A stretch of 64,000 nt of DNA from an uncultured Frankiaceae bacterium (GCA_964651395.1 CAZYXZ010000001.1:15274-79273), one strand, 5' to 3'; shown: positions 36,401 through 50,874, numbered from the stretch's first letter. Made by a program: numbers and translations. Notes: generated by a model not told the origin, from the sequence alone.

Positions 36401-36550
36401 CTACTTCTTCTTCCCGGACTTCTTGGCCGGCTCCCGCTGGCTGAGTGCGCTGCCGGCTGAGGTCTTTGACTTAGCTCCGGTCCGCTTGTCCTTGAGAACG
36501 TCGGACGCGGCGCTCGCGGCCTTCGGACTTGTTGTCTTCTTGCCTGGCAT
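36401..36550 (-). CDS. Small lysine-rich basic protein (49 aa), not in the supplied ORF track
   Basis: Minus-strand ORF 'MPGKKTTSPKAASAASDVLKDKRTGAKSKTSAGSALSQREPAKKSGKKK'. Preceded by a strong SD (AAGGAGG 5 nt upstream of ATG). Lys-rich despite 70% GC. Confidence 0.45.
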   Translation of the reverse strand: MPGKKTTSPKAASAASDVLKDKRTGAKSKTSAGSALSQREPAKKSGKKK

Positions 36551-36607: not shown

Positions 36608-37936
36608 CTAGTGGCGCCGCCGCCGTAGCAGCTTGCGGACTAGCAGCAGGCGCCGAGGGGTGCGCGCTGGGGCGACTGCGGTCAGGTACACGTCAGTGAT
36701 AGCGCCCTCAGCGCGTCCGGGGGCCAGGGTGAGGGCCCTTCGATAGATGGGAGTGGGCTCGTCGTCCCATTCGTAGACGTCGAGCGTGAGTGTGTTGAGT
36801 CGGCGTGCGACGAGCGCGGCGATCGCGTAGGGGCATCGCAGGACGAGATGGACGTGGGTGCTGTGGTGTGCGCCGGCGAGCGCGCGGATGTGCTCGGCGA
36901 TCGCCGCCGCGAGTGGCGCCGCCTGCCGTGCGTCGAGCTCGGCGGGTGCGTAGGCGCTTCGCAGGTGCGACCAGGCGGCGAGTTCCGGCCGCAGGACCTC
37001 GATCAGTGCGGTGTACGCGGGGTCGCTGCTGCTGGGCAGGAGGTCGACGTAGGCCAGGACAGTCCGGCCAGTGTTGGTGCCGTGTCCGTGCCGAACGATG
37101 AGCTCCGGGTTCGGCGCTTCACCGCTGTCTGTCCAACTTGTGCTGGTTCGGTCGACGAGTTCGAGCGTGCCGACGAGGGTGCGCGGTAGGGCTGCGCCGA
37201 GTGCCGCAGCGATGCTGAGGTGCGCGCCGCCGGTGACGACGACGCGGCCGGCGGACGTCGCGCTCAGCGCGTTGTGGACGAGCGACGGCAGGTGGGCGAG
37301 CGCCTGCCGGAGATCCCGCAGCCCCGCGGGGGAGGGGAGGCGGCCGCTGGCGGCGGGTCGTATGCGCATGACGAGGTCGGCGGTGCTGGCAGCGGCGGCG
37401 GGTTGGATCCGGGTCTCGACGTCGAGGCGCAGGTGGCCTGCTGATCGGATACGGGCGGCGAGCGCGTTCAGTCTTCCTCGGGCGAGGTCGGCGGCCAGCT
37501 GGGCGCGTTCGCCGGGCGAGGCGATCGGTCCCTGCTTGAAGCGACTGGCGGTTCCCGACGGCTGGCCGAGCAGCCCGTCCGCGGCCGCGTGGTCGTATCC
37601 GTCGCCGGGCTTCGCCGGGTTCTTGTAGATCGTTGTGGCCATGGCGAGGGTGAACAGAGGCTGGGCTGCCGCCTCGATTAGTCGGGGTGCCTCGACGGTG
37701 CGGACGACCGTCGAGCGGGTGACTTCCGGCGTGAGCAGGATCAAGCCGGCGGAGATGCCTTCGGCGAGGGCATGGTCGAGCTCGTCCTCGGTGTCACCGG
37801 GTGGGAGATCCGTGGCGTCCTGCCAGACCGGGACGCCGGCGGTCCGGAGCGCCCAGGCGAGGTCGACGGCGAGGGCGCGCCCGTCGGATTGCCGGTAGGA
37901 CAGGAACAGCGGTCCCTCGGGGTCGATATCTGGCAC
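36608..37936 (-). CDS. TIR-domain effector with C-terminal sensor domain (TIR-SAVED-like CBASS effector)
   Basis: N-terminus 'PDIDPEGPLFLSYRQSDGRALAVDLAWALRTAGVPVWQD' is a TIR-domain signature. About 300 aa follow, consistent in size with a SAVED domain. GTG start preceded by AAGGAG. Confidence 0.6.
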   Translation of the reverse strand: MPDIDPEGPLFLSYRQSDGRALAVDLAWALRTAGVPVWQDATDLPPGDTEDELDHALAEGISAGLILLTPEVTRSTVVRTVEAPRLIEAAAQPLFTLAMATTIYKNPAKPGDGYDHAAADGLLGQPSGTASRFKQGPIASPGERAQLAADLARGRLNALAARIRSAGHLRLDVETRIQPAAAASTADLVMRIRPAASGRLPSPAGLRDLRQALAHLPSLVHNALSATSAGRVVVTGGAHLSIAAALGAALPRTLVGTLELVDRTSTSWTDSGEAPNPELIVRHGHGTNTGRTVLAYVDLLPSSSDPAYTALIEVLRPELAAWSHLRSAYAPAELDARQAAPLAAAIAEHIRALAGAHHSTHVHLVLRCPYAIAALVARRLNTLTLDVYEWDDEPTPIYRRALTLAPGRAEGAITDVYLTAVAPARTPRRLLLVRKLLRRRRH

Positions 37937-37944
37937 GTGGCTCC

Positions 37945-39267
37945 TTAGGGGCCGTTGGGGTCGCAGGTCGGGCAACCCGACTCGGGTGGGGCGGCGGCGG
38001 TCCAGGTGATTCCGCCGGCGCGCCAGTTCTCATCCGTCGCACCGTCGCCGCCGTAGGGGGCGGCGAGCAGGGTGTTGGGCTGCAGCGCGATGACGGCGAG
38101 GTCACCGGGGAGCACGGCGGCGTTGTCGCCGGCGGCTTGGAGGATGGTCGCGACGCTGACCTTGGCGGCGAGGCCGCCGACGAGATGCAGGTCGCCGCCG
38201 ACCGCGGTCATCGCCAGGTGGGTGAAGCCCTCGCCGTAAGGGCGGTCGAGGGTGGGCTCGGCGTCGAAGACGCCGTCGCGGACTTGCGCGCTGCGTTGGC
38301 AGGTGAGGCAGCCCTGATCCGGCCAGGGGCGCAGCCGGAGCACCTCGCCGATCCGCCCGGTGTCGAGGACGCAGCCCAGCACGGTGGTCAGGCCAGCGCG
38401 GCGCGCGAGGTGGTTGCTCACTCGCCGGGCGGCGACGCCGTCGGCGCAGCAAAGCACGAGGTCGGCATCGTCGAGTAGCGGGCGTACCTGGTCGGCGTCG
38501 GCGACGACGTCGAGGCGGTGCGGGTGAATCTCGGTGTCGGGTCGGTGCTCGCGGAGTTCTTCGGCGAGCGCGTCGACTTTGTGTCGGCCGACGTGCACGG
38601 CGCTGCTGGTGTGGCGGATCAGGTTGTGCCGGGCGAGCCGGTCCGGGTCGATGAGCAACAGCCGGCCGAGGCCGTAAGAGGCCAGCGCGTGCGCGGCGGC
38701 GCTGCCGATGCTGCCGGTGCCCACGAGCGCGATGGTGCGCGCCTGCAGTTCTGCGACCGGCCAGTGGCCGGTGAGCTGAACGATGCCAATGTGTGCAGGC
38801 TCTGTGAGGAGGTCGATGGGCTGGAGCTGTTCGTCGTTGAACATCCAGGCGGCGAACTCGGAGACGAGCTGCCACCCGTCTTCGTCTGGGATGTCCGGGG
38901 CGTAGGTGATCAGGATCGCCGGTTCGGGACCGAGCGCGGGCAGGTCGGGAAGCTGCTGGCGGACCGGGCCGGCTTTCAAGGCGATGTTGCGGAGTCGCGC
39001 GTGCAGGTGTTGGAGGTGCAGGTCGGCGTTGGCGCGTTCCCACCATCCGGTGCCACCGTTGACGTGCTGCAGATTGAGCCGGTGATTTTTTGGCGTGAGG
39101 GGGGTTGGGAATGTCTCCGGGGCGCTGACCTTGCCGATGCTGACACTGCCGACGGCGACCAGAGCATCGACGTCGCTCATCCGGAGCCCGAGTTCGCCGT
39201 GCCGGCCGCCGGTCTTGATTCGCTCCTGGGCGCTGAGGGGAAGCAGCACCGCGATCCGCTCAGGCAT
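37945..39267 (-). CDS. E1-like ubiquitin-activating (ThiF/MoeB-fold) enzyme, Cap2 E1-module-like
   Basis: 'IALVGTGSIGSAAAHALASYGLGRLLLIDPDRLARHNLIRH' (Rossmann GxGxxG plus DxD..NLxRQ-like). 'DLVLCCADGVAARRVSNHLARRAGLTTVLG'. C-terminal CxxC pairs. N-terminal about 160 aa uncharacterised. ATG overlaps the E2 gene stop by 8 nt. Confidence 0.7.
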   Translation of the reverse strand: MPERIAVLLPLSAQERIKTGGRHGELGLRMSDVDALVAVGSVSIGKVSAPETFPTPLTPKNHRLNLQHVNGGTGWWERANADLHLQHLHARLRNIALKAGPVRQQLPDLPALGPEPAILITYAPDIPDEDGWQLVSEFAAWMFNDEQLQPIDLLTEPAHIGIVQLTGHWPVAELQARTIALVGTGSIGSAAAHALASYGLGRLLLIDPDRLARHNLIRHTSSAVHVGRHKVDALAEELREHRPDTEIHPHRLDVVADADQVRPLLDDADLVLCCADGVAARRVSNHLARRAGLTTVLGCVLDTGRIGEVLRLRPWPDQGCLTCQRSAQVRDGVFDAEPTLDRPYGEGFTHLAMTAVGGDLHLVGGLAAKVSVATILQAAGDNAAVLPGDLAVIALQPNTLLAAPYGGDGATDENWRAGGITWTAAAPPESGCPTCDPNGP

Positions 39268-39745
39268 CGTCGGCGGTGGTGTCGTCGGTCGGTACGTTTG
39301 CGTCGTTCTCGTCGGCGAGGAGTTGGGCAGCCTGGGGAACGAGATGGTCGTGCACGGGGTCGCTGACGATCCCAGCCTCGGTCATCTGCTCGATCAGGCC
39401 GAGCTTCATCAGCGCGTACTCGACTCGCCACGCGCAGGCCTTCAGTAGCAGCTCGAGGATGCTGTCTTTCGGTTGCCAGTCGACGGCCGCCTGCAGTAGG
39501 CACAGCCCCCCGTCGGGCAGGACATGCCACTTGTGGTCGGTGCGCACGTGCAGCGACGGTTCCGGGTCGAGGGGATAGATCGTGGGGTAGTGCGCGGGGT
39601 AGGCGGGGCCCGGGATCACGTCGGCGACCAAGCCGCGTGGCACGACTATTGCAAGGCCGTCCGGGGCCGACCGGTCGAACGGCCACACCGGGAGCTCGCC
39701 CCGCCATGAGCCGCCGTTCGCCTCGGTCCAACTCAGCCCGGGCAT
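39260..39745 (-). CDS. E2-like ubiquitin-conjugating (UBC-fold) protein, Cap2 E2-module-like
   Basis: From 'MPGLSWTEANGG...'; 'HKWHVLPDGGLCLLQ' matches the E2 HPN-like loop with catalytic Cys. The ORF's upstream extension (R/P/S-rich) is treated as non-coding. Confidence 0.6.
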   Translation of the reverse strand: MPGLSWTEANGGSWRGELPVWPFDRSAPDGLAIVVPRGLVADVIPGPAYPAHYPTIYPLDPEPSLHVRTDHKWHVLPDGGLCLLQAAVDWQPKDSILELLLKACAWRVEYALMKLGLIEQMTEAGIVSDPVHDHLVPQAAQLLADENDANVPTDDTTADDA

Positions 39746-39827
39746 CCGCGCTGCGAGGGCGGTGAGATCAGCGGCATGTCGGCGTGGTTCTGCCTCCCAC
39801 CAAGGCTGGGGTGCCCGCGACTGCCGA

Positions 39828-40052
39828 TCACCCACCGGGGTTGTCACGGAGGCGATGAGCCCGGTCCGTGGTCGCCGCCGCGGCAGTGCTGCCGGCGGCT
39901 CCGGTGTGCAGCGCGGGTGCTTCGACGGGCACGGGGAACTGCTCGCCGAAGACTTCCCGCCACGCGCGCATCGCGCGTCCCTCATCGCCGGCCCGCGCAG
40001 CCGCACACGCGCGCGCGGCGTTGTCCGCGGCGCTCTGGAGCGCAGCGCGAAG
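39828..40052 (-). pseudogene. Displaced 3' segment of the CD-NTase ORF (76 codons ending -NPGG) separated from its gene by the IS3 insertion
   Basis: Reading on the minus strand from the TSD copy at 40050-40052 in the cdn frame gives an open 75-codon frame '...RAALQSAADNAARACAAARAGDEGRAMRAWREVFGEQFPVPVEAPALHTGAAGSTAAAATTDRAHRLRDNPGG*'. The stop is 80 bp upstream of the E2 start. Confidence 0.45.
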
Positions 40053-40079
40053 TGAACCGCCCCAGGTTCTCTGCCGCTC

Positions 40080-41063
40080 TCATACGGGTTGCGGCTCTCG
40101 GTTGAGAGTCGCGTAGTGGGCGGCCTCGTACTCGCTCGGGGTGAGGTAGTCGAGGCTACTGTGCAGCCGCCGGTTGTTGTACCAGTCGACCCAGCCGGCG
40201 GTGGCCCACTCGACGTCGGTGATGCTGCGGTAGGGCCCGGCGTGGAAGACCGTGGTGCGGATGCACTCGGTCTTGAACAGCCCGATCACGCACTCCATGA
40301 GCGCGTTGTCGTATGCGTCGCCGACGCTGCCGATCGACGGGCGGATGCCTTCGAGGTCGAGGTGCTCGGTGAACGTGATCGACGTGTACTGACTGCCCGC
40401 GTCCGCGTGACCGATCAGCTCGCCGGGCTGGAACGGGTGCCCTTCGCGCTCGCGCTGCCAGGTCGCCATCCGCAGCGGCGTCATCACCAGCTCGACGTCC
40501 TTGGACGTGGCGGCGTGCCAGGCCACGATCCGCTGCGCGAACACGTCGAGGATGAACGCGACGTAGACGAACCCGACCCAGGTCCGGACGTAGGTGAAGT
40601 CCATCACCCAGGTGCGGTTCGGCTCGGTCGCGGTGAAGTCCCGGTCGAGCAGGTCGCCGGCGCGCTTGCCGTCCTTGCCCGGGATGGTCGTGCGCACACC
40701 CTTGGCACGGCGGATGCCGTTGAGCCCCAGCGTTCTCATCGCCCGGTCGACCGAGCCCGGCGTCGCCGCCGGCAGCGAGCGGCGCACCAATCGCAGCATC
40801 TTGCGTCGCCCATAGAGACCTTCCGGGGCCAGCCGGCGGACCCCGGCCAGCTCGCCCACGACATCGACGGTCCAGGCCAGGTCACGCACCCGATCAGTGA
40901 CCTGCGCGTCGGTGACGGTGCGCGCCGCGACCAGCTGGTCGGGCTGCCTCCATGCCCGGTAGGTCCGTGCGGCGATCTGACAGCCCTGCTCGGACAGGAC
41001 CCGGCAGACCGACTCGACCGCAAGACCAGCGGCACGGCAGTCGTCGACGAACGCGACGATCAA
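40080..41063 (-). CDS. IS3-family transposase OrfB (DDE integrase core)
   Basis: 327 aa; 'TWVMDFTYVRTW...', 'HADAGSQYTS', 'GSVGDAYDNALMECVIGLFKTE' are the DDE motifs of IS3-family rve integrases. Confidence 0.85.
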   Translation of the reverse strand: MIVAFVDDCRAAGLAVESVCRVLSEQGCQIAARTYRAWRQPDQLVAARTVTDAQVTDRVRDLAWTVDVVGELAGVRRLAPEGLYGRRKMLRLVRRSLPAATPGSVDRAMRTLGLNGIRRAKGVRTTIPGKDGKRAGDLLDRDFTATEPNRTWVMDFTYVRTWVGFVYVAFILDVFAQRIVAWHAATSKDVELVMTPLRMATWQREREGHPFQPGELIGHADAGSQYTSITFTEHLDLEGIRPSIGSVGDAYDNALMECVIGLFKTECIRTTVFHAGPYRSITDVEWATAGWVDWYNNRRLHSSLDYLTPSEYEAAHYATLNREPQPV

Positions 41064-41371
41064 GAGCTGCGGGGGTCGAGCTCCCCCGCGAAGAAAATCG
41101 ACGCCCGGCGCAGGATCTCGTTGTCCTCCTCGAGCCGACGGACCTTGCCCTTCAGCTCCCGGATCTGCTCGAGCTCCTCGCTCGTCGCACCACGACGCTC
41201 GCCACGGTCGACCTGCGCCTGCAGAAACCAGCGCCGCACCGACTCCTGCCCGACGCCGTTACGTCGAGCGACCGCCTCGGCCGCGGCCGTCGGCGTCGGG
41301 TACTCGTGCACGTGCTCAAGCATCTGCTGGACGCAGCGTTCCTTCACCTTCGGATCGATCTTCTTCGGCAT
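41060..41371 (-). CDS. IS3-family transposase OrfA (HTH)
   Basis: 103 aa 'MPKKIDPKVKERCVQQMLEHV...SVRRWFLQAQ...LEEDNEILRRASIFFAGELD'. Leucine-zipper/HTH OrfA; overlaps orfB. Confidence 0.8.
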   Translation of the reverse strand: MPKKIDPKVKERCVQQMLEHVHEYPTPTAAAEAVARRNGVGQESVRRWFLQAQVDRGERRGATSEELEQIRELKGKVRRLEEDNEILRRASIFFAGELDPRSS

Positions 41372-41421
41372 GAACCCGTCCTCCTGGACTCACAAGGAGG
41401 CGGCATCAAACCTGGGGCGCT

Positions 41422-42192
41422 TCAAAGTGCCGACACGTCCAGGTCGGGCTGGATCGGTCCGCACAGCTTCGCCGGGTCGAGCACGGGGGAGTTGATGCGG
41501 TCGACGGCGCGCTGGAAAAACCCGGCCAAGGCTGTGGGCCGATCTGGGGCTTCGAGCAGGCAGTCAAGGGCGAGCACTTCCACGAGCAGCGACTTCACCT
41601 CGGTGGGCTGAAGCCGCGCCCAATACTTCAGCAACCGCACAAGGGGCACGAATAGCGCCCACTGCTCACTGACTAGCGTGATGAGCACCTGCGGGTTGGT
41701 AGCGATCCACTGCTGCGTCTTGTGTTCGGGTACCCACAGGCCGCCGGCGGCGCGGGGCAGCGCTGGCATCGCGTCGACCGTGAAGTCGTAGTCGCGGAGC
41801 CGGTCGCGGAAGTGGCAGCGGACCGCGTGGTTGCGAGGTTCGGCTCGGAGTAGCTCCTTTCCGACGGTCCCGTTCTCTACGCCGAGCAGGCGCATGGCGT
41901 GGGTCGCGATGAACGCGAGGGCGTCGTCAACGCCGACGGGACTCCCGGGCTGCGCCCAGTCGGGGAAGTGTTTCGGGTCCAGCTTGATCACTGTGTCGAC
42001 GTCATGGATGGGGTCGATGTGGGTGCGCCGCGCCAGTGAGCCGCTGCAGAAGACGTCCAGGACCTCGGTGATCGTGCAGTAGGCGTCGTCGAACAGATCG
42101 CGACGGCGGCGAGCTTCCTTCAGGTCCGCTGGATCGGTGTTGACGACCTGCTGGAACTCGTCGAACGCGTCGTCGAGCGTGCGCTTGCTCAT
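41422..42192 (-). CDS. cGAS/DncV-like nucleotidyltransferase (CD-NTase, SMODS-type), 3'-truncated by the IS3 insertion
   Basis: 'FCSGSLARRTHIDPIHDVDTVIKL' (GS-x11-DxD NTase motif) and downstream 'YDFTVDAMPAL' (third acidic residue). The stop codon is supplied by the IS terminal TTCA. Upstream GGAG SD. Confidence 0.6.
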   Translation of the reverse strand: MSKRTLDDAFDEFQQVVNTDPADLKEARRRRDLFDDAYCTITEVLDVFCSGSLARRTHIDPIHDVDTVIKLDPKHFPDWAQPGSPVGVDDALAFIATHAMRLLGVENGTVGKELLRAEPRNHAVRCHFRDRLRDYDFTVDAMPALPRAAGGLWVPEHKTQQWIATNPQVLITLVSEQWALFVPLVRLLKYWARLQPTEVKSLLVEVLALDCLLEAPDRPTALAGFFQRAVDRINSPVLDPAKLCGPIQPDLDVSAL

Positions 42193-42519: not shown

Positions 42520-42954
42520 CTAACTGCTGTCCGCGGCGCCTGCATCTTGAAGCCGGTCGCGGGCGCGGAGACGACGTTCGGTCTCGATCTGGCCCTGGAA
42601 GTGGAAGATCGCGTTGGCGAACTGGATCAGGAAGTCGGCCTGGCGTACTGGTGTTGCGGCGGATCGGTACAGCTCCCACAGTTCGAAGAGGTTGTCCAGC
42701 CGGCGCGAGCGCTCCTCGTCGGAGTCGAGGTCGGCGACGTCGTCGAGGAACTCCTGGTCGACCGACTCCGGATCGCTTGCTGCTTGTGGCTCGGGGCCGC
42801 CTACAGACGTCGTGCTGTTAGGCGGCTCTGCGACGAGCGGGAGCGCGGACACGTCTGGGGCGATCGGCCGCGCGAGGTTGGCTAACGCCTTGTCCAGCAT
42901 CAGCTGCGGGATCGGGCCGTTCTGACGTTCCCAGTCGTCGAGCCAGAGGCGCAT
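42520..42954 (-). CDS. Hypothetical acidic protein (island-borne)
   Basis: 144-aa ORF with protein-like, acidic composition. Between the Tn7-like module and the CBASS operon. Confidence 0.35.
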   Translation of the reverse strand: MRLWLDDWERQNGPIPQLMLDKALANLARPIAPDVSALPLVAEPPNSTTSVGGPEPQAASDPESVDQEFLDDVADLDSDEERSRRLDNLFELWELYRSAATPVRQADFLIQFANAIFHFQGQIETERRLRARDRLQDAGAADSS

Positions 42955-43336
42955 CGCGCGGAGGCGGCGCCGGCGACCTCATGAGCGCCGCTGGGTCATG
43001 TCCGCGGCCCGGATTGGGGGCCTTGGGCGGCATGCAGTTCCTGGTGGCGACCACGTTGGTCGTTGTGCGCTCCGTGACGATGCCTGGCCGTTCGATCTGG
43101 ATTTCCAGGCGCATCGGTGAGCCGATGCGGATGTCGTCGATGGCGAGGATGGGGATCTCGCGGTGGTCCGCGCGGAGCGCGGCGGGAACGACCCCGGGGC
43201 CGCCGGGGCCGGTGTCGGGTACTCGCAGTGCGGTACGGCGGTCGAGCAGGTAGGTGCTGCTCTCGGTGGTGATCTGCCATCGTCCAGTACGCAGGCGGTG
43301 CACCATGTTGATGGCTGTGGGGGCGTTCCCGGTCAT
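42818..43336 (-). CDS. Hypothetical protein translationally coupled to tniQ (C-terminus uncertain)
   Basis: ATG overlaps the tniQ stop (ATGA). First about 120 aa protein-like; the C-terminal R/P/A-rich tail overlaps the next ORF. Possible frameshift or shorter gene. Confidence 0.35.
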   Translation of the reverse strand: MTGNAPTAINMVHRLRTGRWQITTESSTYLLDRRTALRVPDTGPGGPGVVPAALRADHREIPILAIDDIRIGSPMRLEIQIERPGIVTERTTTNVVATRNCMPPKAPNPGRGHDPAALMRSPAPPPRDAPLARRLGTSERPDPAADAGQGVSQPRAADRPRRVRAPARRRAA

Positions 43337-44328
43337 GGGTGCGGACCGTAGGGGTCCGGTGTGACAGAACGTGCCTGCCGGTCGATGGCTGGTGCTGCAA
43401 AGTGCCCGTGGGCGCTATACAACGCAGCATCGGGACGGCCGGTGGGGGCGGTCGCGATGCCGTGCCATGGATCGGCGAGCCATCTGAAGGCCCGGGGATG
43501 CCGCGCCGCCGGGTGGTGGTGGATGCCCAGGCGGATGGCGAGGCGCTGGCTGAGCAGGGTGGTCTGCTCGCCGTGCGCCGCTCGCCGCGCCGGTTCAGCG
43601 GCGAGCTCGGCAGTCAACTCGACATGCTCTGGGAAGGTGACCGCGTTCGGGATTTGATGCTGCGGCTCGGGTCGAAAGCCGAACGCGCTGAGGTGTGCTT
43701 CCCGGGCTCGCCAGCGCGGGGCCAGCGGCCCGTACGTGCCGTCGGGACCGCGCCAGTCACTGAGGAGCGCGCCGGCGAGCGCGAACGCATGTGCCAGGGA
43801 CTGCGGGTGCTGCTGCCAGGTCAGGTCGAGGGTGCGTTGCGCCGCGACGAGCCAACGCGCGGGTGCTCGTTGTGGTCGCGGGCCCGCCAGCCACAGACCG
43901 TGGCTCGCGCAGTGGATGCGCGGCGGCACGGCCCATCGTGCCGGGTGGGCACCGGCGCGACGGCGTTGGCAGTCCGGACACACACGTGCACCCAGCGGGC
44001 TGTGCTGTGACTTCCAGTGCAGGTGCAGCCGCGATCCGGCGGGCGGTGTCTGGGACAGCGCGGGCAGGGCCCTGCGGAGTTGGGTTGGTGGGTGGCCACT
44101 GAGCACGGCAAGCGCCGCCCGCCGCTCCGGGTCGAGGGTGATGTCGTCCGCAGGGGACCAGTAGGTCCGACGCCGACTGGCCGGCTCGATAACGGCGAGG
44201 AGGGTGCGCAGCGTGAGGTGATGCGCATCGGCGAGGCGGTGGACGTAGGACAGCACGGTCTCGGCGGCTTGTGGCCGCACATGGCGGGGGAGCGGGCGCG
44301 CATCGCGCGCCGGTCGGTGGGGTGGCAT
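43333..44328 (-). CDS. tniQ: TniQ-family transposition target-selection protein
   Basis: 'ETVLSYVHRLADAHHLTLRTLL' plus a zinc-ribbon-like 'CPDCQRRR...HCASHGLW' are typical of TniQ/TnsD N-terminal domains. Confidence 0.7.
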   Translation of the reverse strand: MPPHRPARDARPLPRHVRPQAAETVLSYVHRLADAHHLTLRTLLAVIEPASRRRTYWSPADDITLDPERRAALAVLSGHPPTQLRRALPALSQTPPAGSRLHLHWKSQHSPLGARVCPDCQRRRAGAHPARWAVPPRIHCASHGLWLAGPRPQRAPARWLVAAQRTLDLTWQQHPQSLAHAFALAGALLSDWRGPDGTYGPLAPRWRAREAHLSAFGFRPEPQHQIPNAVTFPEHVELTAELAAEPARRAAHGEQTTLLSQRLAIRLGIHHHPAARHPRAFRWLADPWHGIATAPTGRPDAALYSAHGHFAAPAIDRQARSVTPDPYGPHP

Positions 44329-44332
44329 GCGC

Positions 44333-45343
44333 TCAGCGGTCGGTGCCTGTGCCGACCAGCGGGAGCCGGGAGGCGGCGGTGGTGTCGCTGCTCGCTTCAG
44401 CGAGGCCATCGCAGTCGAGCGCGTCGAGGCTGGCCCGGGTGATCGTTTCGGTGCCGTCGTCGATGGCGGCGATGGCGGCTTCACTGATCAGGTCGCTGAG
44501 GCTGCCGATGCGCCCAGCGCTGCGGGCGTGCAGGTAGGGAGCGAGCCGGCGCAGCGTGCCGGGCTTGTGCTTGTAGAGGCGAAGCGCGTCTTCCAAGTCG
44601 CCGACGAGCGCGTCCCAGAGGGCCCGGTCGTCGGCGGTGCCGTAGCGGAACGGGGTGAGGGTGACCGATCGGAATCGGCCGAGGATCTGTTCGCCGCGGG
44701 TTCCGCGCAGCAGGCCGCTTCGGTCGAGCCGGATGCCGGCGATGACGACGGTGATGCCGGTGCGTTCGGTGAGGTATTTGATCTGGTCGGAGGCTTCGGC
44801 GCCGCGGGCGGTGCCGAAGTTGAGGTTGTGGATCTCGTCGAGCAGCCACAGTTGCGTGTTGAGCGTGCGCATGTTCGCGACGACGATGTTCATCAGGTCG
44901 ACGCGGTTGCCGACCAGGTCGAGGTTGAAGAAGCGGGCGACCTCGCTGATGAACATGCGGGCGTTCGCGCCCGGCGGGACGAGGGTGTAGCCGACCGGGA
45001 TGTCTTCGTCTGCGCGTGGTGTGCGCTTGCGGTAGGCGAGCTCGAAGGAGCGGCCGGCGGCGAGCAACGCTTCGGTCTTGCCGGTGCGTGCCTCGCCGCT
45101 GACGAGCAGTCCGCGGCCGCGCCGGTCCAGTGCGCGCAGCCGTCTGGTCTGGTGCACGACCTGGCGGAGCCCAGGCGTGGCGATGACGACGTTGCGCTGG
45201 TGGTAGGCCCGACGCTCTTCGTCATCGTCCCGGCGGGCCTTCCCGCGCGTCCGTCCCCAGACCCGAGGGTCGAGCAGTGTCGGTGGTGCAGGTGCTTCGA
45301 GCTCGTCGCGCCACTGCTCATAGGTCGTCGGCGCTGGACGCAT
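44333..45343 (-). CDS. TnsC/TniB-family AAA+ ATPase transposition regulator
   Basis: Walker A 'SGEARTGKTEAL', Walker B 'LWLLDEIHNL'. Genes ordered tnsB-tnsC-tniQ. Confidence 0.7.
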   Translation of the reverse strand: MRPAPTTYEQWRDELEAPAPPTLLDPRVWGRTRGKARRDDDEERRAYHQRNVVIATPGLRQVVHQTRRLRALDRRGRGLLVSGEARTGKTEALLAAGRSFELAYRKRTPRADEDIPVGYTLVPPGANARMFISEVARFFNLDLVGNRVDLMNIVVANMRTLNTQLWLLDEIHNLNFGTARGAEASDQIKYLTERTGITVVIAGIRLDRSGLLRGTRGEQILGRFRSVTLTPFRYGTADDRALWDALVGDLEDALRLYKHKPGTLRRLAPYLHARSAGRIGSLSDLISEAAIAAIDDGTETITRASLDALDCDGLAEASSDTTAASRLPLVGTGTDR

Positions 45344-47409
45344 CAGTTCGCTCCGTCGTGCGGGTCGAACACGCCGAGACTCCTGCGTGGTCCTGTTGCT
45401 TCCCGCTGCGGGTCGACGTCGTAGCCGTCGATGCCCGCCTCAGGGAGCGGCACTGAGTGCAACCGGCTGTTCTGCCGGAGCCGTTTGCGAGCGGCTGTGC
45501 GCCGGGCAACATTGCCCGGGCCGCGTGGAGGTCCGGCTTGGACCCGATCGAGGAGGTCGCGGGCGTGCTTGGCGATCTCCTCTTGGCGGACTGGGTCGTC
45601 GCCGTCGCGGGTGAGGCGGACAGCTTGGCTCCAGATGGCGTCGCTGAAGGGGCGGTCGGCCCAGGCGCGCAGTGTCCAGGGCACGGCAATCCACTGCTCG
45701 GATTGGTCGGCGATTCGGTGGTCGCGCAGCCAGATGTGGTTGATGTCGAGTGGGTCGTGGTGGATCTCCCACTGCTGGCGGCGACCGGGCAGGCCGGATG
45801 GTTGGTCGTAGTAGGGCCGCAGCGCGGCGCTGTCGTAGATGCGGTGGTCGAGCTGGATGCCGTAGTGGTTGACGGTGCGCCAGACAGCGGGCATCAGCTC
45901 GATGTAGTCGGTCGGGCCGAGCGGCACGGGCACGTAGCCGTCGCGGGCGAGCAGCGCGGCGGCCATCTCGTTCGGGCTTAGCTGAATCTTGCTGTTCAGG
46001 GGATGCCGGAGTTTGGCGTGCTTGCGGGTCTGCCAGACGCTGACGACGAACTCGTCGAGCAGCTCCTGCAGCTCGGCCAGAGTCCAGAGCCGCTTCGGTC
46101 GCTTGTGACCGCGCTGCTGGGCGTTGCGCCCGACGTAGCCCTTGATGTGCTGCAGGAACAGGCTGTCGAAGGATCCGAAGCTGCGTTCGACGAAGGGCTT
46201 GCTGGTCGGGCGCTGCACCTGGGCCGGCGCGAAGCTGATGCCGACGTGCTCGCAGATGCGCAGGTGGGAGTCGGCGAACGCGATCTTGGCGCGATCCCAG
46301 ATCAGCGTGTCGATCATCACGACTGGTCGGGCTGCCGCGTCTTCGAGTCGTTGGTCGATGCTGATCAGCCGCTCGTAGGGCAGGGCGGAGTGCTGGAGCG
46401 CGAGGAACTCCGGCCAGCCTGGGCGCATCCGCTCCGGGACGAGGCCGCGGGCGAGCAGCAGGCCAGAGTCCACAGCGCTCGGGTCACCTGCATGCAACGT
46501 GGCGGCGAGGACACTGCGGCTCGCCGGATGCTTGAGCGTGAGCAGGTGTGGCCGGCCGACCACGCCGGGGGAGAGGATGGCTTCCACGTTGAGCACGGTC
46601 GCGTCGGCCTCGACTTCTCCGGGCGCGTAGGTGTCGCGTGGCTGGTAGGGCTGATCGGGGCGCAGTGCCGCGCTCTCGCGGGCCTTGGCACTGTCGAAAG
46701 TGTGCCGACCGCGGTCGGCCTCGTGCATCCGCCGATAGACGGTGGCCTTGCTGGGCATCGGGAAGTCCGGGCCGTGGCGTTCGCGGAGCAGCCGCTCGAC
46801 GCGCACCCGAAGCCGGCCCCGCTCGCCGGTGGACTCACCGATCTCACGGTCCATGCACTCGGTGATGGCAGCCATGAGCTCGGCGTCGCCGCGCTGACGT
46901 TGCGGTTGGGGCGCGAGTCGCCGGTCGACTAGCGCCCAGAGGCCTTCTTGCTGGTAGTCGCGGCAGTAGCGGCGCAGCGTGCCCAAGGCGATCGGGCTGG
47001 TGCTGTTGGCCGTCTGCGCGACCTTGCGTTGCTGCCGGTCGAACAGTGACGTGCTCGCCGGGTCGAACTGCGGGTCGGCCGGCAGGCCAGTGCGGGCTTC
47101 CCCGTAGAGGACCTCGCGGACATGCCGCTCGAGCGCACGAGCCGCGGTGACGATGTCTGTGCGCAACCCGTCCAAGCGTGCGTCGGCCGGCACGCGGGGT
47201 CGCTGCGAGTCGAGCAGCTCGAACGTCGGATCGGCAAGCAGGTCGCCGGCGAGAGTGGTGAGGACCTCACCGTCGTTGCCGAGCAGCGTCACCGTCGTGG
47301 TTCCGCCCGGTCGCAGCTCCCGCAGGGTGCTGAGAGCGCGCACGGAGTATGTGCGCTCAGCAAGGCGCAGCACCGCACCGATGCGCAGCATCGGCCGCCC
47401 GCCCGTCAT
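45343..47409 (-). CDS. TnsB/TniA-family (Mu-type DDE) transposase
   Basis: About 690 aa; 'VVMIDTLIWDRAKIAF...', 'HIKGYVGRN', a C-terminal region typical of the rve/Mu-transposase family. ATG overlaps the tnsA-like stop (ATGA). Confidence 0.75.
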   Translation of the reverse strand: MTGGRPMLRIGAVLRLAERTYSVRALSTLRELRPGGTTTVTLLGNDGEVLTTLAGDLLADPTFELLDSQRPRVPADARLDGLRTDIVTAARALERHVREVLYGEARTGLPADPQFDPASTSLFDRQQRKVAQTANSTSPIALGTLRRYCRDYQQEGLWALVDRRLAPQPQRQRGDAELMAAITECMDREIGESTGERGRLRVRVERLLRERHGPDFPMPSKATVYRRMHEADRGRHTFDSAKARESAALRPDQPYQPRDTYAPGEVEADATVLNVEAILSPGVVGRPHLLTLKHPASRSVLAATLHAGDPSAVDSGLLLARGLVPERMRPGWPEFLALQHSALPYERLISIDQRLEDAAARPVVMIDTLIWDRAKIAFADSHLRICEHVGISFAPAQVQRPTSKPFVERSFGSFDSLFLQHIKGYVGRNAQQRGHKRPKRLWTLAELQELLDEFVVSVWQTRKHAKLRHPLNSKIQLSPNEMAAALLARDGYVPVPLGPTDYIELMPAVWRTVNHYGIQLDHRIYDSAALRPYYDQPSGLPGRRQQWEIHHDPLDINHIWLRDHRIADQSEQWIAVPWTLRAWADRPFSDAIWSQAVRLTRDGDDPVRQEEIAKHARDLLDRVQAGPPRGPGNVARRTAARKRLRQNSRLHSVPLPEAGIDGYDVDPQREATGPRRSLGVFDPHDGAN

Positions 47410-48182
47410 GTCTCGCCTCCGGCGCGCACAAGGCTGTCCGATCGCATGGGCCGGTCCAGGTCGAGGCGCAGCCGACCGGCCCACAGCTCGTGGTAGAGCG
47501 CGGGGAGAACTCTCAGGGGGTCGCCGAAGAGCTCAGCGCCGGCGCGCAGGCCGAGCGGTTCGGCGAAGACGACGGCAAGCTGCGTGGCCAGCTCAGCGTT
47601 GCGGCAACGCGGGTGTCGGTACGCGGCGATGAATCGCAGGTTGCTGCGGTAGGGCTCAACCAATGGCCCCAGCACGCGGTAGCCCCATCCGAGCTGCGCG
47701 CACATTCGTGCAGTGGCCGTGAACGTCGTGGCGGCTGCGGTGTCGATCTGCGCCGGGTGTCGGCAGTCGACGAGGAGCCTGCTGGCGTCGGCGCGTATCA
47801 GCAGCGCGTCGGGCACATGCATCCGGTCCGACCAGACCAGCTGCATCGGCTGGCTGACGAGGGCGACAGTGTGCGGGTCAAAGTCGGCCTGCTGGAACCG
47901 GTCCCGTTCGAGTCCGGACTCGTATGTCCAGTACCGCCGTTCGGTCGCCGACCAGTACTGGCCCGACCGGGCCAAGCCCCGCCCGAGCTTGAGCACATCA
48001 CGCACCGGTTGCATCCCGGGCAGCGGCAGCGCGCCGAGGTCATCCGCGGCTAACCGGATCGGCTCGCCGTCCGCGGCCACGTAGCGCACCTGCGGCAGGT
48101 CGCGGCCCGACAGGTGAGCTGGACGTGCGGGCCGGCGTGGCGCAGCAGCGCGGAGGGTCCCCCCCGGCGCAAGCGTCCGCAT
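47406..48182 (-). CDS. TnsA-like endonuclease (Tn7-type transposition protein)
   Basis: From 'MRTLAPGG...'; 'YWTYESGLERDRFQQADFDPHTVALVSQPMQLVW...HVPDALLIRADASRLLVDCRHP' follows the TnsA catalytic-core pattern (ES..E...D..QP...PD). The last acidic/basic pair is divergent. Confidence 0.5.
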   Translation of the reverse strand: MRTLAPGGTLRAAAPRRPARPAHLSGRDLPQVRYVAADGEPIRLAADDLGALPLPGMQPVRDVLKLGRGLARSGQYWSATERRYWTYESGLERDRFQQADFDPHTVALVSQPMQLVWSDRMHVPDALLIRADASRLLVDCRHPAQIDTAAATTFTATARMCAQLGWGYRVLGPLVEPYRSNLRFIAAYRHPRCRNAELATQLAVVFAEPLGLRAGAELFGDPLRVLPALYHELWAGRLRLDLDRPMRSDSLVRAGGET

Positions 48183-48383
48183 CGACACCTCCGGGGGGAA
48201 GCAGCTGCACCTCCGGGAACTACGGAGAGTGACGAACTGCACGGGGCGTGCTGACCTCGCAACGGTACGGCTGGGAGGGGGATTCGGACAAATCGACCAG
48301 GAGGCGGACCTAGAGTGGGATGGACCTCGAGCATCGGCAGGTGACGTGTGAGCCGGACCACGGACCAGCCCGATCCGCTTGTG

Positions 48384-48731
48384 GCGCGCTATGTCGCGGA
48401 GATCGTCACCGCCATCGAGGCCGCGCGCGGCGGACGATCGCTTCGGCAGTTCGCCCAAATGTGTGGGGTGAGCGCCTCGACCTTGTCCGCGGTGATCCGT
48501 GGCCGGCGCTTCCCAGATCTGCAGACCGTCGTGCTGGTCGAGGCCGCTACCGGGATCGAGATCTGGCCGTTTGACCGCATTCGGGCCGCCGAGTTCGCGG
48601 CCTCGCGGATGCGGGTCGCAGAGTCACGCGTACGGCCCCGTGCGCAGTTAGGCCAACAGATCAGTTCCGCAGGCCGCACTCATAGGCCAGCCAGCCGGAC
48701 TCCCGGGGCCAGTCGCTGCGATCGAGGGTGA
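48384..48731 (+). CDS. XRE-family helix-turn-helix protein
   Basis: 'SLRQFAQMCGVSASTLSAVIRGRRFPDLQTVVLVEAATGIEIWPF' is an HTH_XRE-like motif. Divergent from the tnsA-like gene. C-terminal extent uncertain. Confidence 0.45.
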   Translation, partial: ARYVAEIVTAIEAARGGRSLRQFAQMCGVSASTLSAVIRGRRFPDLQTVVLVEAATGIEIWPFDRIRAAEFAASRMRVAESRVRPRAQLGQQISSAGRTHRPASRTPGASRCDRG

Positions 48732-49494
48732 CCCTCAGCCGGCGAGCGTGCGCGGTGAGCCCACGGCGGATCGCCCTTTCGATGCCGACGACATCCGGCC
48801 GGTCGTCCAGGTAGTCGCCCTGGCCCCAAACCACCCTGATCTGAGTGAGCAGTACGACCTCGGGATAGACCCACGGCTCGACGTTCCCGGCCCGCCATGC
48901 CGGCCAGTCGGCTTGATCGCAGCGTGCTGCCCAGATCCGCGCGAGGTACGGAAGCTCCAGGCTTCGCCAGGAATAGGCGACACCGATCGCCCCCCGTAGC
49001 TGCTCGAGGAAGCCGCGGTGGCCGCGGCTGCGGGCGAACATCCGGTCGAGACGGGTCTGCGCTCCAGTCAGTTCCGTGCTGCGCACCGGGGTCTTCTCGC
49101 CGACCACCTGCTCGTGCTCGGTGCAGTAGAGGAAGGGCGCGTGTGCCCACCGGGCGAGTCGCGCGCCGTCGTCACGGAGGCAGGCGGTACACCGGTACGG
49201 AACGGTGATCAGGCCGCTCTCTCGGCGCATCGTCATGCGCGGTCGCGATTCGTCGCGCAGCCATAGCGGGGGTTGGGTGACCCAGTCGCGGTAGGTGAGG
49301 GCCGGCATCGCGGAACGCAACAAGCCGACCGGTAGGCCGGACAGCGCCGATAGCTTCTCCTCGAGAGGCCCATGCGCGATCACATCCCGTGCCCGCTCCG
49401 TCGACGCGGGCAGCGCCAGCGGCAAGGCGCGCACCGGGAGGTGGTGCGCGTCGGCGAGGCGGCCCAGCCAGCTCAGCACCGTCTCGCCCGGCAC
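48661..49494 (-). CDS. TniQ-family protein (second copy)
   Basis: 'ETVLSWLGRLADAHHLPVRAL' plus zinc ribbon 'YRCTACLRDDGARLARWAHAPFLYCTEHEQ'. GTG start. Confidence 0.6.
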   Translation of the reverse strand: MPGETVLSWLGRLADAHHLPVRALPLALPASTERARDVIAHGPLEEKLSALSGLPVGLLRSAMPALTYRDWVTQPPLWLRDESRPRMTMRRESGLITVPYRCTACLRDDGARLARWAHAPFLYCTEHEQVVGEKTPVRSTELTGAQTRLDRMFARSRGHRGFLEQLRGAIGVAYSWRSLELPYLARIWAARCDQADWPAWRAGNVEPWVYPEVVLLTQIRVVWGQGDYLDDRPDVVGIERAIRRGLTAHARRLRVTLDRSDWPRESGWLAYECGLRN

Positions 49495-49538
49495 GGGGGG
49501 AACGCGGCGGGGGAGAGTCCGTGGCGACGGGTCCCAGT

Positions 49539-50483
49539 TCAGGACAGCCCCGCCTCGGCGGCGATCTGGTGGATCTCCGGGTAGCCGCGATAGCTCATCA
49601 GCGGCGACGGCGCGAGCCAGGCGAGCAGCTCACGGGTACATAGCGGCGCGTCCCGAGCCAAGTTGAGCCGGCGGCACATGATGTGCTGCAGGTCGGCGGC
49701 GAAGTGCAGCCAGTGATGACGCGCCTCGTGGTAGCCATCCGCGGTCGCGAGGTCATGGCGCAGAAGCGCCGTGGCAACCATGACGGCTTCGGGGAGCTGA
49801 AACGGCCGCACCGTCCAGCCGGTCGTCGGCCAGTCCTGGCTTGCCCGCCGTTGCTGCCAGGCCTGCTCGACCAGCGCCGGCCACCCCGGCGCGTCGCGAC
49901 CCGGGTGCCGCCAGCCACTGAACATCCGCAGGGTGCGCTTCCACGCGGACTCAGCAGCCGCAGCCGGGAAGACCCGCCACAGCCCAGACAGCTCAGCCTG
50001 TGCGCGGCGAACAGCCCCCGAACGCAAGGTGATGCCGGCGGCGTCGGTGAGCAGTAGCTGGTGTGCCGCGCAGTACAACTGCGGGCCGAGCCAACGTCGC
50101 GATGGCGCGGCGCCGCCGCGTCTGCGCGAGCAGCGCAGGCAGTATCCCGGCCAGGCACTGTCGTCGAGACCGCTGTCGTAGGACGCCGCTTCTCTGCCGT
50201 CAGGCAGCAGCGCGCGGTCGGCCGCACCTGGCAACGCGGCGGCCAGACGTCGCGTGGTTGTGCCGGCCATACAGGCGAGGTGGGCGCGGCCCGGGCGAGT
50301 GAGCCACAGATCGGTCGGCACCCAGTGGCCGGTGGCGCTCGGCGGGCCAGTGCCGAGCATGCGGGCCACGTGGTCGTCCAGGAGGTGGTTGGCTTGAGCG
50401 AGGCGACGAACGTAGGAGCCGGCGCCCTCACCGCCCACCGGCCGCACTGTTCGGGGGAGTGGTCGCAGCGGTTGGTCCGGCAT
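49539..50483 (-). CDS. TniQ-family protein (third copy)
   Basis: From 'MPDQPLRP...'; 'GEGAGSYVRRLAQANHLLDDHVARMLG' plus 'WPGYCLRCSRRRGG...LYCAAHQL'. Confidence 0.6.
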   Translation of the reverse strand: MPDQPLRPLPRTVRPVGGEGAGSYVRRLAQANHLLDDHVARMLGTGPPSATGHWVPTDLWLTRPGRAHLACMAGTTTRRLAAALPGAADRALLPDGREAASYDSGLDDSAWPGYCLRCSRRRGGAAPSRRWLGPQLYCAAHQLLLTDAAGITLRSGAVRRAQAELSGLWRVFPAAAAESAWKRTLRMFSGWRHPGRDAPGWPALVEQAWQQRRASQDWPTTGWTVRPFQLPEAVMVATALLRHDLATADGYHEARHHWLHFAADLQHIMCRRLNLARDAPLCTRELLAWLAPSPLMSYRGYPEIHQIAAEAGLS

Positions 50484-50613
50484 GGGCAACCCTGAGCGCT
50501 GACGGCGTTGTGTTGGCCCTTTCCCCAGGCTCCAGGATGCGAACCCCGAGCACGCCGGCGGACCGTTCAGGTGGCGCCAGCCGGACGGGAGACACGACCG
50601 GTGTTGCAGGCTC

Positions 50614-50874
50614 CTATCGCCGACCAGGCGGAATCGGTGACGCGTCCACCGCGGGTGTGATTCCGGGTGAGGGAAGCAGCCCGTGGTCGCGCCATTGCCG
50701 GACGATCTCGTCACGCTTCTGCTCGGCGTACCAGGTCAGGCCTGTGGTGATCACACCCGGAGGGAGCAGCAGAACCACGATCAGCAGGAGCCGCCCGCGC
50801 AGCCGCTGCCAGCGGCGCGACCAGTCGAAGTCGATGACCTCCAGGACCAGTTCAATGAACACGCTCCGCAGCAT
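50614..50874 (-). CDS. Small hypothetical membrane protein
   Basis: 86-aa ORF with one hydrophobic segment 'LLLIVVLLLPPGVITTGL'. Weak support. Confidence 0.25.
   Translation of the reverse strand: MLRSVFIELVLEVIDFDWSRRWQRLRGRLLLIVVLLLPPGVITTGLTWYAEQKRDEIVRQWRDHGLLPSPGITPAVDASPIPPGRR

Follow-up and report, generated by a model that had tools for sequence, protein, structure and literature searches.

Type II CBASS, anti-phage signalling systems based on cyclic oligonucleotides, are a model for ubiquitin-like conjugation that primes cGAS-like enzymes in bacteria. The mechanistic work that we found in the searchable literature was all done on the fused E2-E1 protein Cap2 together with Cap3; one preprint states that every Cap2-encoding system also encodes Cap3, and another that such pathways use a fused E2-E1 protein. 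Here, we analyze an operon on the minus strand of a 64,000-nucleotide stretch of DNA from an uncultured Frankiaceae bacterium (GCA_964651395.1 CAZYXZ010000001.1:15274-79273; the whole stretch is called the window below, and positions are counted from its first letter). Like the type II-C CBASS of Microbacterium ketosireducens (Hogrel et al., 2022), the operon combines an actinobacterial CD-NTase cyclase, a ubiquitin-like module and a TIR-SAVED effector, and the Microbacterium TIR-SAVED is known to be a filament-forming NADase activated by cyclic triadenylate (cA3) (10.1101/2022.05.04.490601). The locus is a variant of a known system. We are confident in reading it as a type II CBASS abortive-infection operon that belongs to an actinobacterial subfamily and has been inactivated by a recent insertion of an IS3-family insertion sequence (IS).

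Between 36608 and 42204, the window contains co-directional minus-strand open reading frames (ORFs) in sequence of approximately 70% GC, which is actinomycete-like. A preliminary description of this DNA had proposed four genes here, encoding a cyclase, an E2, a ThiF-type E1 and a TIR-domain effector of TIR-SAVED size, and we found all four on the minus strand at the coordinates claimed (Table 1). The motifs quoted for them are also present, namely GS-x11-DVD and 'TVDAMPAL' in the cyclase, 'LPDGGLCLL' in the E2, 'GTGSIGS', 'LIDPD' and 'NLIRH' in the E1 and 'PLFLSYRQSD' in the TIR domain. In hidden Markov model (HMM) searches, the four proteins match the expected families far beyond chance, both in Pfam (SMODS, ThiF, SAVED and TIR_2) and, for all four, in PADLOC, and each member of the type II CBASS component set is thus supported by family matches, even if identity to any relative retrieved is only 40–53%. 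The proposed tight linkage of the genes holds for E2, E1 and effector but no longer for the cyclase, which the IS places 1.4 kb from the E2 gene. A scan for promoters and terminators gave no signal exceeding shuffled expectation. Directly established here are the gene content, the homologies, the conservation of catalytic residues, the conserved glycine tail of the cyclase, an IS flanked by its target duplication, the lack of a JAB gene and, for the N-terminal domain of the E1, the fold.

The cyclase has all of its active-site residues (G51-S52, D64-V-D66 and D140). Its nearest solved structure is CdnD of P. aeruginosa (6P82; 8e-21 over approximately 290 residues), the nearest solved cyclases being of the CdnD/CdnC type, and it matches the PADLOC Cyclase profile PDLC00818 at 3e-88, although over profile positions 3–254 of 322 only. 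Its Pfam SMODS match is modest (E 6e-8, 33.5 bits), and CBASS_cyclase_b, its top NCBIfam match, scores below the curated cut-off (108 vs 200 bits). These two scores could be taken to point to a non-signalling minimal nucleotidyltransferase of the antitoxin type (MNT), in which case the cluster would not be CBASS at all. This alternative is effectively refuted by the PADLOC match and the long CdnD alignment, as well as by the obligate linkage with SAVED effectors over approximately 80 loci and by a conserved glycine tail typical of Cap2 substrates. The enzyme is a CBASS cyclase, as the preliminary description had it.

The cyclase gene is interrupted by an element with the features of the IS3 family: two overlapping ORFs (orfA with a helix-turn-helix (HTH) domain and orfB with a DDE/rve domain), 25-nt imperfect terminal inverted repeats (TGAAC...GTTCA) and a perfect 3-bp direct duplication, CTT/CTT, at its flanks, 3 bp being the usual size of IS3-family target duplications. 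Its transposase scores 228 bits against NCBIfam transpos_IS3 (cut-off 160). The limits of the IS are independently fixed by a megablast search of a 14.9-kb island against plasmids, since the sole match was 40050–41426, to IS3 transposase regions of actinobacterial plasmids. When the IS and one CTT copy were deleted in silico, the 5' fragment came into frame with the 222 nt downstream, giving a 329-aa cyclase that ends ...HRLRDNPGG, aligns to CdnD 6P82 through residue 296 and is collinear across the junction (DLDVSAL/RAALQ) with its nearest intact homologue, the cyclase of locus L086 (DLDVPVLRAALK). The reconstructed C-terminus fits the tail pattern R-x-[KR]-D-x-P-x-G, as do those of 39 of 40 related cyclases, in which the tail reads ...RP[IV]KDAPQG; the L086 protein ends ...RRMPDNGQG. 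A C-terminal Gly or Ala is the hallmark of Cap2-conjugated cyclases (PMC10097602), and the reconstructed cyclase thus carries the conjugation residue of a type II system.

Truncation after codon 256 of 329 removes 73 residues, including two C-terminal helices and the glycine conjugation tail, and leaves no intact, expressible cyclase gene. The damage seems to extend further. The E2 most likely starts at GTG 39835, giving an 8-nt overlap with the reconstructed cyclase's stop, and a second 8-nt overlap (ATGCCTGA, 39260–39267), noted already in the preliminary description, joins E2 to E1. As we see no obvious ribosome-binding site at either E2 or E1, their translation appears to depend on coupling through such overlaps, and the insertion has probably uncoupled it as well. 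The TIR-SAVED gene is preceded by an AAGGAG ribosome-binding site, and 8 nt lie between the E1 stop and its start, which is most likely GTG 37936, giving a protein of 442 rather than 455 aa. The undecayed cyclase remnant and the perfect target duplication argue for a recent insertion, and in its present state the operon is very probably non-functional. With 73 cyclase residues removed by the IS and the apparent translational link to E2 and E1 broken, what is left is most likely dead, or no more than an orphan TIR-SAVED.

It seems unlikely to us that the operon still defends its host despite the IS, be it through an active 256-aa cyclase or through a TIR-SAVED that senses a host nucleotide by itself. 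Such a role would be favoured by the intact E2, E1 and TIR-SAVED ORFs, by the effector's own ribosome-binding site and by a 2025 preprint describing a haloarchaeal TIR-SAVED that works without a cyclase, sensing cyclic di-AMP (10.1101/2025.06.19.660554). However, the truncation deletes the region aligned to the last CdnD helices (residues approximately 257–296) and, with it, the conjugation tail. Nothing beyond position 254 of the 322-position PADLOC cyclase profile is matched, and E2 and E1 apparently rely on the coupling just described.

The identity of the effector is clear. It matches TIR_2 (5.5e-9) and SAVED (5e-14) in Pfam and the PADLOC TIR effector PDLC00728 at 1.4e-117, and its residues 17–410 align to residues 6–401 of the Microbacterium TIR-SAVED structure 7QQK (2.8e-66, 39% identity). 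The preliminary description had made its reading depend on a SAVED-like C-terminal domain, and the protein indeed proves to be a full-length, collinear homologue of 7QQK, with an N-terminal TIR domain, a C-terminal SAVED domain and the catalytic Glu of 'VEAP' conserved (E82 in the window, E84 in the Microbacterium protein). The operon therefore encodes, as expected of CBASS, an effector with a predicted cyclic-oligonucleotide sensor domain. Because the effector resembles cA3-activated 7QQK and the nearest solved cyclases are CdnD/CdnC-type, a cyclic trinucleotide is our best guess for the signal. Just downstream of the TIR-SAVED gene is a lysine-rich ORF of 49 aa (MPGKKTTSPKAASAASDVLKDKRTGAKSKTSAGSALSQREPAKKSGKKK; 36401–36550, minus strand) with a strong AAAGGAGG ribosome-binding site.

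The E2 stands alone as a gene. Its Cys in LPDGGLCLL is invariant in 41 of 41 sequences, and so are the His at −8 and the Trp at +8 relative to it. The protein matched no Pfam or NCBIfam family, and its matches to UBC enzymes in the PDB are weak though consistent (E 0.03–0.8); hhalign aligned it with a probability of 80% (E 1.5e-5) to the E2 part of the fused Cap2 from Microbacterium. The E2 of L086 (L086:3402-3956) ends ...ADQAGG, with a ubiquitin-like Gly-Gly, and that of the window ends ...TTADDA; this Gly-Gly is not a family-wide feature and may have arisen by chance.

The preliminary description called separate E2 and E1 genes an unusual architecture. This is right in comparison with characterized fused Cap2 systems, including the Microbacterium operon, but not within Actinomycetota, where the split form is common. 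Homologues of the E1 fall into 361 clusters at 90% identity; among the clusters listed, they measure 352–446 aa, mostly approximately 425 aa, and the organism-named ones are all from Actinomycetota. A genome scan gave 124 species-level matches, from which 80 loci were kept, all from Actinomycetota except one metagenome-assembled genome labelled Dehalococcoidia. Annotation of these loci, by plus-strand gene chaining and HMM searches of six-frame ORFs, revealed a conserved order of cyclase (approximately 320 aa), E2 (approximately 180–205 aa), E1 (approximately 425–450 aa), JAB (approximately 160–200 aa; not in every locus) and SAVED effector, which held in approximately 80 actinobacterial loci. 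Having E2 and E1 as two genes is thus normal for the family, and the fused Cap2 polypeptide of other type II systems is found neither in the window nor in its relatives. PADLOC already has full-length profiles for both split proteins, and prior cataloguing of the subfamily rests on these; the E1 of the window covers the whole 426- and 431-position profiles of the PADLOC 'E1-E2' entries PDLC00829 and PDLC00828 (3e-145 and 3e-143, respectively). In six loci (L054, L055, L058, L066, L068 and L072) and similar ones, we also observed a near-identical seven-gene block that includes a cyclase of 321 aa, an E2 of 204 aa, an E1 of approximately 432–452 aa, a JAB of 202 aa, a TIR-SAVED of 434 aa and a 500-aa protein. 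Its hosts include Blastococcus, Tessaracoccus, Sediminivirga, Dietzia and Ornithinimicrobium, a distribution across many actinobacterial genera that suggests recent horizontal spread.

With an HMM built from 59 family JABs, we scanned 86 loci and found a JAB ORF directly after E1 in 73 of them (approximately 85%). The same HMM finds no JAB in any of the six frames of the window at E ≤ 1e-3, in agreement with the preliminary description, and the window thus lacks the Cap3 JAB/JAMM isopeptidase of type II systems. Further JAB-less loci are L002 and L035 (both Mycobacterium with a DUF6602 effector), L018, L033, L036, L048, L073 and L083–L086. The last four have the same four genes as the window, with a divergent HTH and peptidase M78 regulator upstream, and a neighbour-joining tree places them as sister clade to the window E1. 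As this sister clade shares the four-gene layout, we regard the lack of JAB as a lineage trait and not as a local deletion. The prevalence of JAB directly after E1 among relatives might instead suggest that the gene was recently deleted, or lost by an assembly artefact, in this genome. We consider this improbable: no JAB remnant is found in the 8 nt between E1 and the TIR-SAVED start with its well-placed ribosome-binding site, the E1-then-TIR-SAVED junction recurs in the four independent assemblies of the sister clade, and seven further loci outside it lack JAB too. A lineage-wide lack of JAB is compatible with function, since Cap3 is dispensable for V. cholerae CBASS defence and the JAB-less type II CBASS CmaABC of M. 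abscessus protects against phage TM4 (PMC12359967).

Some relatives carry JAB fused to the N-terminus of TIR-SAVED (approximately 584–616 aa; PADLOC PDLC02013 / PDLC00727; for example protein P0151, 616 aa), so that a deconjugating enzyme can be encoded on its own, as part of the effector, or not at all. The upstream gene of L083–L086 (e.g., L086:1190-2308), divergent from the cyclase, encodes an HTH_3 and peptidase M78 fusion of 342–372 aa that, from its domains, looks like a fusion of the separate CBASS regulators CapH and CapP. No CapH/CapP-like gene is present in the window, where tni genes occupy the corresponding position. In three independent assemblies, L083–L085, the cyclase is a 239-aa frameshifted ORF (L083:2866-3585), with the other frame extending to approximately 3840; the remainder lies in the +1 frame and ends ...RRMPDHGQG. 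The gene is intact in L086 (325 aa). This frameshift and the IS in the window together mean that the JAB-less clade has seen its cyclase inactivated at least twice. It may be costly there to leave priming unopposed, which could explain the two cyclase knock-outs, one by an IS and one by a frameshift, in what are only two lineages.

The E1 matches Pfam ThiF at 5e-25, and its adenylation motif set is intact (GxGxxG, Arg218, Lys230 and Asp276, plus C320xxC323 and C432xxC435). Both activities of Cap2, E1 adenylation and E2 conjugation, are thus predicted to be encoded. The N-terminal domain, which the preliminary description left as uncharacterized, can now be read as an MPN/JAB-fold pseudo-enzyme: as modelled, it is an MPN/JAB-like fold lacking the JAMM motif. 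Structural comparison gave 7.5 with Cap3, 7.3 with the JAB-E1 fusion BubCD and 5.1 with the N-terminal domain of ATG7, and the domain also resembles a Cap2 structure. Sequence comparison was less telling: the domain profile gave chance matches only against PDB sequences (E > 1), no match in Pfam at E ≤ 10, no hhalign match to the fused Microbacterium Cap2 and a weak one, with a probability of 26%, to the family's own JAB. In view of the fold and of the JAB fused to E1 in BubCD, one might suspect a cryptic active isopeptidase that replaces Cap3. This is very improbable. The motif E...HxHx7Sx2D is not conserved in the domain (A1/A2), in which the only invariant residues are G24, T121 and W141; the separate JABs encoded in relatives' operons retain ETGG...EWHTH...S..D. 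A candidate HxH, H87-L-H89 of the window E1, was rejected, being unconserved and inside a predicted helix. Instead, the domain probably docks the free E2.

Residue conservation was counted over 180 distinct E1s of the family, in which C299, C320, C323, C432 and C435 are the invariant cysteines. The pairs C320/C323 and C432/C435 resemble the zinc site of MoeB and UBA5, and neither of the two fused Cap2s examined (E. cloacae and Microbacterium) has them. The crossover loop (residues 324–357) has no conserved Cys in any column; E337, Y344, H350 and M353 are each kept in at least 179 of 180 sequences, the last three in all 180. The catalytic Cys of fused Cap2 loops, C548 in E. cloacae (Ala in 7TO3, GIGAWHPVFP) and the Cys within EAGCGDPVSP in Microbacterium, accordingly has no counterpart here, with the proviso that the mapping to C548 is uncertain by approximately 4 residues. 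In a MAFFT alignment, the Microbacterium Cys falls on Y344 and C548 on the variable position 348 (T, F or Q). A further alignment, read together with the known UBA5 sequence, puts UBA5 C250 at residue 344 or 345 when distances are counted from the CxxC pair and from the conserved Met. The crossover loop of BubCD has no Cys either, and its invariant Tyr, Y370, is required and has been proposed to form a tyrosine oxyester (PMC11601596). The Cys-less loop with an invariant Tyr, as in BubCD, suggests that the family E1 may use a tyrosine intermediate or a direct transfer from the adenylate to the E2. Alternatively, C299 or C320/C323 may be catalytic; C320 and C323, where the loop begins, resemble Zn ligands, and in E. 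coli Cap2 the pair C493/C496 was mutated as the predicted E1 active site (Jenson et al.).

We tentatively propose that the chemistry of the split module differs from that of fused Cap2. The pseudo-JAB would dock the free E2, much as ATG7 does with ATG3/ATG10, and the cyclase would pass from a tyrosine oxyester or an acyl-adenylate to the E2 Cys, by way of a Cys-less loop with Tyr344 and His350; the family would then be a link between Bub JAB-E1 fusions, Cap2 and ATG7. This is a possible scheme, and one to which we give less than even weight. In the intact operon, the CD-NTase would detect infection and make a cyclic oligonucleotide, most likely a trinucleotide such as cA3. The E1 would adenylate the C-terminal glycine (...NPGG) of the cyclase, and conjugation of the cyclase to target lysines would prime signal synthesis, to judge from Cap2 studies; JAB/Cap3 being absent, the conjugates would be left untrimmed. 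By analogy with the solved homologue, the signal would bind SAVED of the effector, filaments would stack to form composite TIR active sites, and NAD+ would be destroyed, killing or arresting the infected cell.

Lastly, we considered the surroundings of the operon. It lies within an island of approximately 14.6 kb (approximately 36.2–50.8 kb) with raised GC skew and housekeeping-type genes on the flanks, and the block from 36 to 47 kb has a distinctly positive GC skew. A Tn5053/Tn7-like gene set (43333–50714, minus strand) is found directly upstream, and the CBASS may be cargo of this tniA/tniB/tniQ element. No convincing transposon ends were found for it, either as inverted repeats over 35.5–49.5 kb or by blastn-short between the two flanks.

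Table 1. Features of the CBASS locus and its neighbourhood (positions in the window).
Feature	Position	Strand	Remarks
TIR-SAVED effector, 442 aa from GTG 37936 (most likely start)	36608..37936	-	catalytic Glu82 in 'TVEAPRL'
E1 adenylation domain, residues 169-440, ThiF/MoeB/UBA5-like	37945..38763	-	
E1 N-terminal domain, residues 1-168	38764..39267	-	MPN/JAB-like fold (modelled), without JAMM metal-binding motif
E2, 191 aa from GTG 39835 (most likely start)	39260..39835	-	PADLOC PDLC00860, 1.5e-65, full length
Cyclase 3' remnant	39828..40049	-	codons 257-329 and stop; C-terminal helices and tail ...HRLRDNPGG
Target-site duplication CTT, promoter-distal copy	40050..40052	-	read from sequence; second copy 41425-41427
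IS3-family insertion sequence, 1,372 bp	40053..41424	-	inverted repeats, orfA/orfB, NCBIfam and Pfam matches
IS orfB (rve integrase)	40080-41063		Pfam rve
IS orfA (HTH)	41060-41371		Pfam HTH_Tnp_1
CD-NTase (SMODS) cyclase 5' fragment	41425..42192	-	codons 1-256 from ATG 42192; frame closed by TGA, bases 1-3 of the IS
Further ORFs in tni block	47406-48458, 42818-43336, 42520-42954	-	
Three TniQ-domain proteins	43333-44484, 48661-49494, 49539-50714	-	
TniB/TnsC-like ATPase	44333-45343	-	
TniA/TnsB-like transposase	45343-47484	-	Mu-transpos_C

The large actinobacterial split subfamily is detected by PADLOC, and we found no description of it in the searchable literature. It is distinguished by separate E2 and E1 proteins, an inactivated JAB-like domain on the E1, a crossover loop without Cys and an unusually conserved cyclase tail, ...DAPQG. 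The novelty lies in these subfamily features (the pseudo-JAB on E1, the Cys-less loop and the DAPQG tail), to which the window copy adds little; being JAB-less and broken by an IS, that copy is a clean example of how a mobile element inactivates an abortive-infection system. If the inferred differences hold, the subfamily would offer a natural two-component Cap2 for dissecting the hand-off from E1 to E2, and something to compare with when asking how ATG7-type conjugation arose.

Among known systems, the PADLOC split subfamily (PDLC00860; PDLC00828/00829; PDLC00818; PDLC00728) resembles the window, with very strong matches to all four proteins and the same gene order in approximately 80 genomes, including Streptomyces, Micromonospora, Nocardia, Amycolatopsis and Mycobacterium; it differs in that most members have an intact cyclase and the JAB after E1. 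Full-length homology, catalytic Glu included, links the effector to that of Microbacterium, and by analogy we would expect cA3-triggered filaments and NAD+ hydrolysis. The Microbacterium operon (L087), however, has a fused 507-aa Cap2 (Prok-E2_A and ThiF), a JAB and a second effector-like gene, DUF6602, whereas in the window E2 and E1 are encoded separately, the E1 bears an MPN-like domain, JAB is missing, there is a single effector and the cyclase is interrupted by an IS. In the canonical Cap2/Cap3 systems of E. cloacae, V. cholerae and E. coli (Ledvina et al., 2023; Jenson et al., 2023; 7TO3, 7TSQ), E2 and E1 are likewise fused and Cap3 is present, unlike in the window. Relative to the two fused Cap2s examined, the window E1 has additional MoeB/UBA5-like CxxC...CxxC pairs and is without their catalytic crossover-loop Cys (C548 in E. 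cloacae), with the invariant Tyr344 nearby.

CmaABC of M. abscessus (PMC12359967) is, like the window, a type II CBASS without Cap3/JAB; it confers phage resistance and its E1/E2 protein is essential, but its Cap2 is fused, its effector is a patatin phospholipase and it probably signals through cyclic GMP-AMP (cGAMP). BubCD of type I Bub systems (PMC11601596) resembles the window E1 in joining, within a protein of approximately 450 aa, an N-terminal JAB/MPN fold to an E1 domain that is accompanied by a separate E2, and in a crossover loop with an invariant Tyr and no Cys, although Tyr344 may not be equivalent to Y370. In BubCD, the JAB is catalytically active, the E2 uses Ser and the substrate is a ubiquitin-like protein (Ubl), whereas in the window the MPN domain lacks JAMM, the E2 keeps its Cys and the substrate would be the cyclase. 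Lastly, the N-terminal domain of the window E1 can be likened to that of ATG7, which recruits the separate E2s ATG3 and ATG10.

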